In this document: positions 4,937 to 47,016 of the stretch, in pieces
Numbering within the stretch: the stretch's first letter is position 1
Layout of the letters: each line of letters starts with the position of its first letter
From: Escherichia coli
GTDB taxonomy: Bacteria; Pseudomonadota; Gammaproteobacteria; Enterobacterales; Enterobacteriaceae
Length of the DNA stretch: 64,000 bases
Direction: 5' to 3' (one strand)
NCBI RefSeq assembly: GCF_003018255.1
Contig: NZ_CP027440.1
Notes under the pieces: model-generated
Databases searched by the model: none
What the model was told of the DNA's origin: nothing
The model's input: only the letters and a program-made list of their open reading frames with translations
Program-made: the position numbers and the translations under genes

Positions 4937-4964
4937 TAAAAAAAAGCCCGGCGTCATGCCGGGC
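4936..4964 (-). terminator. Rho-independent terminator hairpin after uhpT (GCCCGGC-GTCAT-GCCGGGC with a flanking A/T run)
   Basis: 7-bp GC stem at 4946-4952 / 4958-4964; A-run at 4936-4945 gives a U-run on the minus-strand transcript. Confidence 0.6.
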
Positions 4965-32866: not shown

Positions 32867-32948
32867 GATAATCACCTGTAAAGCGTTACGTGTTGACCCA
32901 AAAAGTATAGATCTGCGGGATGATAATTGCGGATTGCAGAAATAAAAA

Positions 32949-42228: not shown

Positions 42229-43593
42229 ATGAGCGATAATGACACTATCGTAGCCCAGGCCACGCCTCCGGGACGTGGCGGCGTTGGCATCCTGCGCATC
42301 TCCGGCTTCAAAGCCCGTGAAGTTGCCGAAACCGTGCTGGGTAAACTGCCTAAGCCGCGCTACGCCGATTATCTTCCGTTTAAAGACGCCGACGGCAGCG
42401 TGCTCGATCAGGGGATTGCGCTATGGTTCCCTGGCCCGAACTCGTTCACCGGCGAAGATGTGCTGGAACTGCAAGGTCATGGCGGTCCGGTGATCCTCGA
42501 CCTGCTGTTAAAACGCATTCTGACCATTCCCGGCCTGCGGATTGCTCGCCCGGGTGAGTTTTCCGAACGCGCGTTTCTTAACGATAAACTCGACTTAGCC
42601 CAGGCCGAGGCGATTGCGGATCTTATCGACGCCAGTTCGGAACAGGCGGCCCGTTCGGCACTTAACTCGCTGCAAGGCGCATTCTCCGCACGGGTTAATC
42701 ATCTGGTAGAAGCCCTCACCCACTTGCGCATTTACGTTGAAGCGGCAATTGATTTCCCCGATGAAGAGATCGATTTCCTCTCCGACGGCAAAATTGAAGC
42801 CCAGCTTAATGACGTGATTGCCGATCTCGATGCAGTGCGTGCTGAAGCACGTCAGGGTAGTTTGTTGCGCGAAGGGATGAAAGTGGTGATTGCCGGACGT
42901 CCTAACGCCGGTAAATCGAGCCTGTTAAACGCGCTGGCTGGCCGTGAAGCAGCAATCGTAACCGATATCGCCGGAACTACGCGTGACGTGTTGCGTGAGC
43001 ATATCCACATTGACGGAATGCCGCTGCATATCATCGACACCGCCGGGCTACGTGAAGCCAGCGATGAAGTGGAACGTATTGGTATCGAGCGCGCGTGGCA
43101 AGAAATTGAACAAGCCGACCGCGTGCTGTTTATGGTCGATGGCACCACGACAGACGCCGTTGATCCAGCAGAGATCTGGCCGGAGTTTATCGCCCGTCTG
43201 CCAGCGAAACTGCCGATCACCGTGGTGCGCAATAAAGCCGATATCACCGGAGAAACGTTGGGGATGAGCGAAGTGAACGGTCACGCGTTAATTCGTCTCT
43301 CTGCAAGGACTGGTGAAGGTGTGGACGTGCTGCGTAACCATCTCAAACAGAGCATGGGCTTTGACACCAACATGGAAGGCGGCTTCCTGGCGCGTCGTCG
43401 TCACCTACAGGCACTGGAACAGGCGGCAGAGCACCTGCAACAGGGTAAAGCGCAACTGTTAGGAGCCTGGGCAGGCGAGCTGCTGGCGGAAGAACTGCGT
43501 CTGGCGCAGCAGAACTTAAGCGAGATCACCGGGGAATTTACTTCTGACGACCTGCTGGGGCGAATTTTCTCCAGCTTCTGTATTGGTAAGTAA
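42229..43593 (+). CDS. mnmE: tRNA modification GTPase MnmE (TrmE), 454 aa
   Basis: ORF 42229..43593; G-domain motif [12 protein letters not shown]; C-terminal CIGK. Confidence 0.97.
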
Positions 43594-43601
43594 CCGCGCT
43601 T

Positions 43602-43637
43602 GCGAAGCCGCATTCTGACTGTCAGATGCGGCTTCGC
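43602..43637 (+). terminator. Terminator-like hairpin after mnmE (GCGAAGCCGCAT...ATGCGGCTTCGC)
   Basis: 12-bp inverted repeat immediately after the stop codon; weak T-run. Confidence 0.5.
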
Positions 43638-43744
43638 TTCATTGTTAGCACTCCTGTTACTCCTCAACCCTTTTTTTAAACATTAAAATTCTTACGTAAT
43701 TTATAATCTTTAAAAAAAGCATTTAATATTGCTTCCCGAACGAT

Positions 43745-43760
43745 TGTGATTCGATTCACA
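43745..43760. promoter_or_regulatory. CRP-binding site TGTGATTCGATTCACA at the tna promoter
   Basis: Perfect TGTGA-N6-TCACA palindrome about 90 bp upstream of tnaC. Confidence 0.8.
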
Positions 43761-43835
43761 TTTAAACAATTTCAGAATAGACAAATTTCTTGAGTATTAT
43801 ACTGTAGCCTCGTGTCTTTCGAGGATAAGTGCATT

Positions 43836-43910
43836 ATGAATATCTTACATATATGTGTGACCTCAAAATGGTTTAATATTGACAACAAGATTGTCGATCA
43901 CCGCCCTTGA
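43836..43910 (+). CDS. tnaC: Tryptophanase operon leader peptide TnaC, 24 aa
   Basis: Encodes MNILHICVTSKWFNIDNKIVDHRP with Trp12 and the terminal Pro24-stop. Confidence 0.9.
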   Translation: MNILHICVTSKWFNIDNKIVDHRP

Positions 43911-44130
43911 TTTGCCCTTCTGTAGCCATCACCAGAGCCAAACCGATTAGATTCAATGTGATCTATTTGTTTGCTATATCTTAATTTTGCCTTTTACAAA
44001 GGCCATCTTTCGTTTATTTACTTGTTTTAGTAAATGATGGTGCTTGCATATATATCTGGCGAATTAATGGATATTGCAAATGTAATATTCACAGGGATCA
44101 CTGTAATTAAAATAAATGAAGGATTATGTA

Positions 44131-45546
44131 ATGGAAAACTTTAAACATCTCCCTGAACCGTTCCGCATTCGTGTTATTGAGCCAGTAAAACGTACCACTC
44201 GCGCTTATCGTGAAGAGGCAATTATTAAATCCGGTATGAACCCGTTCCTGCTGGATAGCGAAGATGTGTTTATCGATTTACTGACCGACAGCGGCACCGG
44301 GGCGGTGACGCAGAGTATGCAGGCCGCGATGATGCGCGGCGACGAAGCCTACAGCGGCAGCCGCAGCTACTATGCGTTAGCCGAGTCAGTAAAAAATATC
44401 TTTGGTTATCAATATACTATTCCGACTCACCAGGGCCGTGGTGCAGAACAAATCTATATTCCGGTACTGATTAAAAAACGCGAGCAGGAAAAAGGCCTGG
44501 ATCGCAGCAAAATGGTGGCGTTCTCTAACTATTTCTTTGATACCACGCAGGGCCATAGCCAGATTAACGGCTGTACCGTGCGTAACGTCTATATCAAAGA
44601 AGCCTTCGATACTGGCGTGCGTTACGACTTTAAAGGTAACTTTGACCTTGAGGGATTAGAACGCGGCATTGAAGAAGTTGGCCCGAATAACGTGCCATAT
44701 ATCGTTGCGACCATCACCAGTAACTCTGCAGGTGGTCAGCCGGTTTCACTGGCAAACTTAAAAGCGATGTACAGCATCGCGAAGAAATACGATATTCCGG
44801 TGGTCATGGACTCCGCACGCTTTGCTGAAAATGCCTATTTCATCAAGCAGCGTGAAGCAGAATACAAGGACTGGACCATCGAGCAGATCACCCGCGAAAC
44901 CTACAAATATGCCGATATGCTGGCGATGTCCGCCAAGAAAGATGCGATGGTGCCGATGGGCGGCCTGCTGTGCATGAAAGACGACAGCTTCTTTGATGTG
45001 TACACCGAATGCAGAACCCTTTGCGTGGTGCAGGAAGGCTTCCCGACATATGGCGGCCTGGAAGGCGGCGCTATGGAGCGTCTGGCGGTAGGTCTGTATG
45101 ACGGCATGAATCTGGACTGGCTGGCTTATCGTATCGCGCAGGTGCAGTATCTGGTCGATGGTCTGGAAGAGATTGGCGTTGTCTGTCAGCAGGCGGGCGG
45201 TCACGCGGCATTCGTTGATGCAGGTAAACTGTTGCCGCATATCCCGGCAGATCAGTTCCCGGCACAGGCGCTGGCCTGCGAGCTGTATAAAGTCGCCGGT
45301 ATCCGTGCGGTAGAAATTGGCTCTTTCCTGTTAGGCCGCGATCCGAAAACCGGTAAACAACTGCCATGCCCGGCTGAACTGCTGCGTTTAACCATTCCGC
45401 GCGCAACATATACTCAAACACATATGGACTTCATTATTGAAGCCTTTAAACATGTGAAAGAGAACGCGGCGAATATTAAAGGGTTAACCTTTACCTACGA
45501 ACCGAAAGTATTGCGTCACTTCACCGCAAAACTGAAAGAAGTTTAA
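44131..45546 (+). CDS. tnaA: Tryptophanase, 471 aa
   Basis: ORF 44116..45546; start at [32 protein letters not shown]... Confidence 0.97.
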
Positions 45547-46885: not shown

Positions 46886-47016
46886 ATCCTTCAAGAAGCC
46901 AGCCATTCGCTGGCTTCTTGCCTCTCAGGAAATCACTTATGTCCAAATGGCAACTCGCCTGATCCTCCTTCACCACGTATGCTTTGCGTCACCTTACTAT
47001 CAGGACGCTTTAGCCC

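Follow-up and report, generated by a model that had tools for sequence, protein, structure and literature searches.

An apparently intact tna operon control region between mnmE and tnaA on an Escherichia coli chromosome

The intergenic region between mnmE and tnaA on the Escherichia coli chromosome analysed here is, with very little room left for doubt, an ordinary and intact control region of the tna operon, which would operate by the canonical mechanism as its functional steps are described in the K-12 literature. The region lies in a window, meaning the whole analysed stretch of 64 kb, the gene content of which runs from yicN to pstA on the dnaA side of the origin. In the alignment with a characterised tna leader that the first-pass annotation had proposed as a check, the 537 bp differ from the tnaCAB locus (b3707-b3709) of K-12 MG1655, which we take to be the strain in which the tna mechanism was worked out, by 21 substitutions and not by a single indel. 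The gene order mnmE-tnaC-tnaA-tnaB and all spacings are identical in the two strains, as are the CRP core, TnaC with its UGA stop codon, the boxA-like sequence, the first 85 nt and the last 44 nt of the tnaC-tnaA spacer and the TnaA protein, whereas four substitutions are found upstream of the CRP site, nine in a patch between the -35 and -10 positions, one in the 5'UTR, seven in the middle of the spacer and two, both synonymous, in tnaC (F13, TTT for TTC; K18, AAG for AAA). TnaB carries four substitutions compared with its K-12 counterpart, and tnaA and tnaB are both intact.

At the protein level, TnaC is identical residue for residue to the nascent chains of the stalled-ribosome structures PDB 6I0Y (chain 7) and 4UY8, and it scores 71.1 bits against Pfam PF08053 (cut-off 25; positions 1-24 of 24 covered) and 44.3 bits against NCBIfam TIGR02616 (cut-off 23.55). 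Because of the K-12 alignment without indels, the identity of the peptide to these chains and the profile scores, the assignment as tna control region is one by direct identity and not by resemblance. In 5,419 of 5,426 complete E. coli genomes, the annotation 'tnaC: tryptophanase leader peptide' is found under the match to the 537 bp, and the homologous stretch is annotated as tnaC, tnaA and tnaB. The tna leader is already known, being among the best characterised bacterial regulatory regions, and this copy has nothing unusual to it; its main use is that of a positive control, as a real and complete regulatory unit that was recognised from raw sequence with correct coordinates.

Proposed mechanism and extent of the region

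We infer every functional step of the mechanism from the K-12 literature (PMC8429421, PMC12360218, PMC10941005, PMC5748587); what is read here directly is which elements are present, where they lie, whether they are intact and how well they are conserved. Initiation would take place at a weak sigma-70 promoter and would require CRP-cAMP to occupy 43745-43760, which would make the operon subject to catabolite repression, and the transcript would begin with tnaC. When free tryptophan is low, the ribosome would end translation of tnaC at the UGA codon and leave, exposing the boxA-like sequence and, next to the stop codon, the C-rich rut region, upon which Rho would load at the exposed rut and terminate transcription at pause sites within the 220-nt spacer before tnaA is reached. 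When tryptophan is high, it would bind in the exit tunnel together with the nascent TnaC (Trp12, Asp16, Ile19) and block the RF2-mediated release of TnaC-tRNAPro (Pro24); the stalled ribosome would then cover rut, so that RNA polymerase could read on into tnaA and tnaB. Pairing of the small RNA Spot 42 in the spacer may add a further layer of catabolite control.

The first-pass annotation had considered the CRP site, tnaC and the long spacer to be all the elements needed for this regulation. That list left out the core promoter, the Shine-Dalgarno sequences, boxA and rut; as all four are present, the conclusion drawn from it stands. Its view of 43594-44130 as the complete control region can be upheld only in part. 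The interval is bounded exactly by the mnmE stop codon (43593) and the tnaA start codon (44131), comprises the whole mnmE-tnaA intergenic region of 537 bp and holds all tna elements (Table 1), but nothing indicates that the first approximately 150 nt (43594-43744) belong to the control region. A nearly perfect stem-loop follows directly upon mnmE, and none of 200 shuffled sequences folds as well. This structure is probably the mnmE terminator and is not counted as a tna control element; if it is the terminator, it would probably insulate the tna promoter from read-through. No family was matched by an Rfam scan of 43000-45000 with E values up to 1, as is expected for the tna leader because it acts via a peptide and not via a structured RNA.

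Table 1. Coordinates of features in and next to the tna control region (positions are those of the window)
Feature	Position	Strand	Remarks
Stem-loop, 36 nt, nearly perfect	43602-43637	+	directly 3' of mnmE stop (43593); -27.4 kcal/mol, z -4.4
Variable AT-rich stretch	from stem-loop end to CRP site		from conservation comparison
CRP-cAMP binding site core	43745-43760	.	TGTGATTCGATTCACA, TGTGA-N6-TCACA; 22-mer at 43742-43763
Core promoter region (predicted)	43771-43805	+	weak -35 and overlapping -10 candidates; consensus scan: TTCAGA-18-TATTAT
-10 candidates	43795-43800; 43798-43803; 43800-43805	+	TATTAT; TATACT; TACTGT
Polymorphic promoter patch, 17 bp	43786-43802	+	9 differences from K-12
Shine-Dalgarno sequence of tnaC	43821-43825	+	GAGGA, 10 nt before ATG; read from sequence
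tnaC, 24 sense codons and UGA	43836-43910	+	encodes MNILHICVTSKWFNIDNKIVDHRP; W12, D16, I19, P24
boxA-like sequence	43902-43910	+	CGCCCTTGA; spans Arg23, Pro24 and stop codon; pattern match; identical to K-12
tnaC-tnaA spacer, exactly 220 nt	43911-44130	+	tnaC stop ends at 43910, tnaA ATG at 44131
Proximal spacer with candidate rut region	43911-43995	+	C-rich, G-poor, unstructured; begins right after stop codon
Spot 42 pairing site (predicted)	43936-43949	+	AGCCAAACCGATTA; complementary to K-12 spf nt 50-64 (TAATCGGATTTGGCT), one bulged base
Shine-Dalgarno sequence of tnaA	44118-44123	+	GAAGGA, 7 nt before ATG at 44131; in nearly invariant last 40 nt of spacer
tnaA, tryptophanase, 471 aa	44131-45546	+	TIGR02617, 1010 bits (cut-off 826)
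tnaB, low-affinity tryptophan permease, 415 aa	45638-46885	+	NF007235, 926 bits

For comparison beyond K-12, eight E. coli strains that sample the range of identities were aligned together with E. albertii, E. whittamii and one further representative of an Escherichia species. E. albertii, E. whittamii and strain SCPM-O-B-8794 (labelled E. coli) share the TnaC peptide, the CRP site and the tnaC 5'UTR with the window, and the length of their spacers is the same within a few bases. On the other hand, tnaC of E. whittamii and SCPM-O-B-8794 ends with UAA, and the middle of the spacer and the upstream regions have strongly diverged in these two. The variability is distributed very unevenly over the region, in the pattern that the known mechanism predicts.

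CRP site and core promoter

The CRP core is the sole match to TGTGA-N6-TCACA in the 64-kb window, with 0.03 matches expected from dinucleotide-preserving shuffles, and its 22-mer agrees with the CRP consensus at 15 of 22 positions. The claim of a perfect CRP palindrome is correct with respect to the position, 43745-43760, but the palindrome is limited to the two pentamer arms, as the central TTCGAT is not self-complementary. The core is invariant in the eight E. coli strains and the Escherichia species representatives; across the genus one of the 22 positions of the 22-mer varies, versus 53 of 92 (58%) in the AT-rich DNA just upstream. With a K-12 tna leader that we take, after Stewart and Yanofsky, to be 319 nt long, transcription would start at approximately 43812 in the window, which puts the centre of the CRP site (43752.5) at -59.5; with a start at 43814 the centre would be at -61.5. 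Class I and class II CRP sites are centred at -41.5, -61.5, -72.5 and so on, -61.5 being the classical position. The literature searched for the tna transcription start, the CRP position and TorR boxes in the tna promoter provided nothing usable. In E. coli, tna is described as activated by CRP and subject to catabolite repression (PMC5748587, PMC8429421), and activation by CRP and repression by glucose would apply here by reading across from K-12, to which the CRP site is identical.

Downstream of the CRP site the promoter differs from the one known from K-12. Nine of the 21 substitutions are crowded into a 17-bp patch between the -35 and -10 positions, where the window reads ATTTCTTGAGTATTATACT and K-12 AAACTCTGAGTGTAATAAT; the window has TAT-TATACT in place of the extended -10-like TGT-AATAAT of K-12 and is without the TG. 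A match to window positions 43761-43835 is present in 5,399 E. coli genomes, for which identity bands were sampled and eight sequences were inspected; of these genomes, 812 are identical to the window across this interval and 2,986 differ at one to three positions. Approximately 3,800 genomes are thus window-like (at least 95% identical), while 1,475 (approximately 27%) are K-12-like (88% identical). The window carries the majority type of promoter in E. coli, and the K-12 type is the minority. For work on indole signalling and on tnaC-based tryptophan biosensors, the minority status of the K-12 promoter haplotype is a by-product of modest interest from this comparison, as is the occurrence of UAA-ending tnaC in some Escherichia species. 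Experiments in K-12 do not cover the promoter strength of the window haplotype, even though this is the majority type.

It is conceivable, if rather unlikely, that the promoter haplotype shifts the output of the operon quantitatively, by changing basal or maximal tna transcription and hence indole production, which would refine the canonical mechanism and not replace it. The dense packing of the nine substitutions between the two promoter elements and the separation of the genomes into two discrete haplotype classes point in this direction, as does the variability of the patch between Escherichia species, in which its flanks are invariant. Across the genus, 18 of the 48 positions that separate the CRP site and the presumed start vary. 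However, both haplotypes are common and therefore presumably both functional, an A/T-rich -10-like hexamer is kept at the same place in both, and the changes could be neutral in a promoter that depends on CRP. That the patch marks two functionally different classes of tna promoters in E. coli is to be regarded as doubtful; if true, the intensively investigated promoter of K-12 would represent the less common type, and the majority of strains, this one among them, would differ from it in the level of indole production or in the degree of CRP dependence.

Spacer and leader peptide

The distance between tnaC and tnaA, previously given as about 220 nt, is exactly 220 nt, and the C-rich rut region and boxA-like motif for which a search of the spacer had been suggested are both recognizable. 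The boxA-like motif is not significant on its own, with two matches in the window and 4.3 expected; in its favour are its position and its identity to K-12. A role of the tna boxA sequence is reportedly the subject of a study by Konan and Yanofsky from 2000. The ratio of C to G is 1.5 in the first 60 nt of the spacer, 1.67 in the first 90 nt and 0.56 in the rest, and the 60 nt that are richest in C over G (43885-43944) contain 21 C and 10 G, a composition that reaches no more than the 96th percentile among 60-nt segments of the 64-kb sequence. When folded, 43902-43990 does not surpass shuffled sequences (z -0.17), and the first 85 nt of the spacer are 100% identical in K-12 and seven other E. 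coli strains. An unstructured C-rich stretch following the tnaC stop codon has the appearance that a Rho loading site should have. According to the literature the rut site has been mapped in the K-12 sequence, to which the proximal stretch is 100% identical here.

Within the proximal spacer, 14 of 15 nt are complementary to Spot 42, which suggests 43936-43949 as coordinates of the target site, and repression of tnaA by Spot 42 has been found to need the spacer tract that contains this pairing site (PMC5748587). The predicted duplex of the leader with Spot 42 over its whole length is uninformative (-53 kcal/mol, with 22 of 200 shuffles as good).

As an alternative to Rho, transcription could be attenuated in the spacer by an intrinsic terminator consisting of a hairpin and a U-tract, as in the trp operon. 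In a consensus scan, GCCTTTTACAAAGGC (43989-44003), with CATCTTTCGT after it, stands out as terminator-like, and this is the only such hairpin between tnaC and tnaA. However, with 6 bp and -5.5 kcal/mol (z -1.5) it is a weak hairpin, a poor U-tract forms its tail, the scan finds two terminator-like sites where 0.7 are expected, and the stem is not kept in E. albertii or E. whittamii nor, more generally, conserved across Escherichia. As termination in the tna leader has moreover been attributed to Rho (PMC12360218, PMC8429421), an intrinsic terminator is very improbable, and Rho-dependent termination is the preferred reading.

Across Escherichia, 17 of 85 positions vary in the proximal, 38 of 95 in the middle and one of 40 in the distal part of the spacer. 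The conservation of the last 40 nt (44091-44130), just downstream of the highly variable middle part, exceeds what the Shine-Dalgarno sequence of tnaA alone would need. An open reading frame of 36 codons at 44034-44144, which overlaps the start of tnaA, was considered as a second small gene and rejected, as neither its start nor its frame is preserved in E. whittamii and the differences between strains are mostly non-synonymous.

With respect to the leader peptide, translation of 43836-43910 bears out the 24-codon tnaC with Trp12 and with Pro24 as the final sense codon, after which the UGA stop codon read by RF2 comes directly (CCT TGA at 43905-43910). Changes at the Trp12 and Pro24 codons, which would have spoken against the assignment, were looked for and none is present. 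The genes tnaC, tnaA and tnaB are all located on the + strand, with tnaC upstream of tnaA. Trp12, Asp16, Ile19 and Pro24 are the critical residues of TnaC (PMC10941005), and the identity with the peptide of the published experiments and structures (PMC8429421) argues for tryptophan-dependent arrest of the ribosome at the stop codon also in this strain.

Nine distinct tnaC alleles were collected in Escherichia from the eight-strain sample and the loci of a pattern scan. Seven of the 75 tnaC positions vary, and all seven variable sense positions are synonymous third positions. Because synonymous changes make up only 18% of the possible single changes in tnaC, so that seven out of seven would arise by chance with a probability of approximately 6e-6, the TnaC peptide is under strong purifying selection across the genus. 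That the short open reading frame and the palindrome arose by chance in AT-rich intergenic DNA and have no regulatory role, for which one could cite that reading frames of 24 codons are common (104 of at least 20 aa within 7 kb), is refuted by this pattern of conservation, with sense changes in tnaC that are synonymous only and a CRP core that is unique in 64 kb and invariant next to strongly varying DNA, as well as by profile scores far above the curated cut-offs and the identity of TnaC to the structurally characterised peptide.

The synonymous variation of the nine alleles is confined to codons 11-22, while codons 1-10 are invariant (window 43812-43865 including the 5'UTR), and in the tnaC 5'UTR (43812-43835) two of 24 positions vary across Escherichia. 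The invariant first codons and the near-invariant 5'UTR hint at a constraint at the nucleotide level on translation initiation, or are due to chance.

A minor variation concerns the stop codon. The tnaC gene ends with TAA and not with TGA, with the peptide unchanged, in E. whittamii, in SCPM-O-B-8794 and in a contig of a metagenome-assembled genome (MAG) (homologue loci L012 3409-3446, L013 6869-6906 and L014 269-306), while TGA is kept by the sampled E. coli strains and E. albertii. RF2 acting at UGA is central to the mechanism as published, which makes natural leaders with UAA a small curiosity.

Related leaders and distribution of the region

Leader peptides that couple translation to transcription termination occur in other systems. 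The tna leader of Proteus vulgaris likewise combines a tryptophan-containing leader peptide, a spacer and Rho, but it differs in its spacer, in its longer peptide and in that the ribosome stalls ahead of the stop codon. This Proteus vulgaris tna operon leader is reportedly the subject of a study by Kamath and Yanofsky from 1997. The attenuator of the trp operon (trpL) also uses a leader peptide with Trp codons to couple translation to transcription termination, but senses charged tRNA-Trp via alternative RNA hairpins and an intrinsic terminator, whereas the tna leader has no conserved terminator hairpin and would respond to free tryptophan on the ribosome, with termination by Rho. In the ornithine-sensing leader speFL-speF an arrest peptide dependent on a small molecule masks rut and prevents Rho termination as in tna (PMC12360218), but peptide, ligand and regulated gene differ and the two leaders have no sequence relationship.

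Besides Escherichia sequences, a pattern scan for the TnaC core in 100,044 species genomes yielded a single mis-binned MAG contig and a single chance match, and it did not find a leader of the Proteus vulgaris type. The chance match (L015), in a Polyangiaceae MAG, lies inside a longer reading frame and is unrelated. The MAG contig (L014, JAIJJM010000386.1, labelled MAG: Collinsella sp.) is 3.1 kb long and carries an Escherichia-type tnaC-tnaA leader together with the junction of the effector island; almost certainly it stems from Escherichia and was binned wrongly.

Within E. coli, megablast of the 537 bp retrieved a match in 5,419 of 5,426 complete genomes, always on the chromosome. The remaining seven genomes have no match to the region. 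In strain AH62 (NZ_CP055259.1) only the first 44 bp match, at the mnmE terminator, and the tna leader appears to be missing; in strain 1802D011 (NZ_CP149549.1) an IS1 is inserted inside the tna control region. The complete genome closest to the window is that of DETEC-S792 (approximately 99.5% identical), in comparison with which the window is without two copies of IS200C (4939-4944 and 32941-32946) and without a 127-bp element between tnaB and mdtL (46886-46894).

In approximately 790 genomes less than 80% of the 537-bp query is covered, mostly owing to an effector island between mnmE and tna. Such an island replaces the native DNA in O157:H7 strain 4276 (L004 1-600) and in EC21Z-144 (L007 1-2500) and carries in both a type III effector gene of the ShET2/EspL2 family; in O157:H7 the stretch with the mnmE stem-loop is swapped for island DNA and tnaC is kept. 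The island junction corresponds to approximately 43741-43744 of the window; the CRP core begins a few bases further downstream and is intact.
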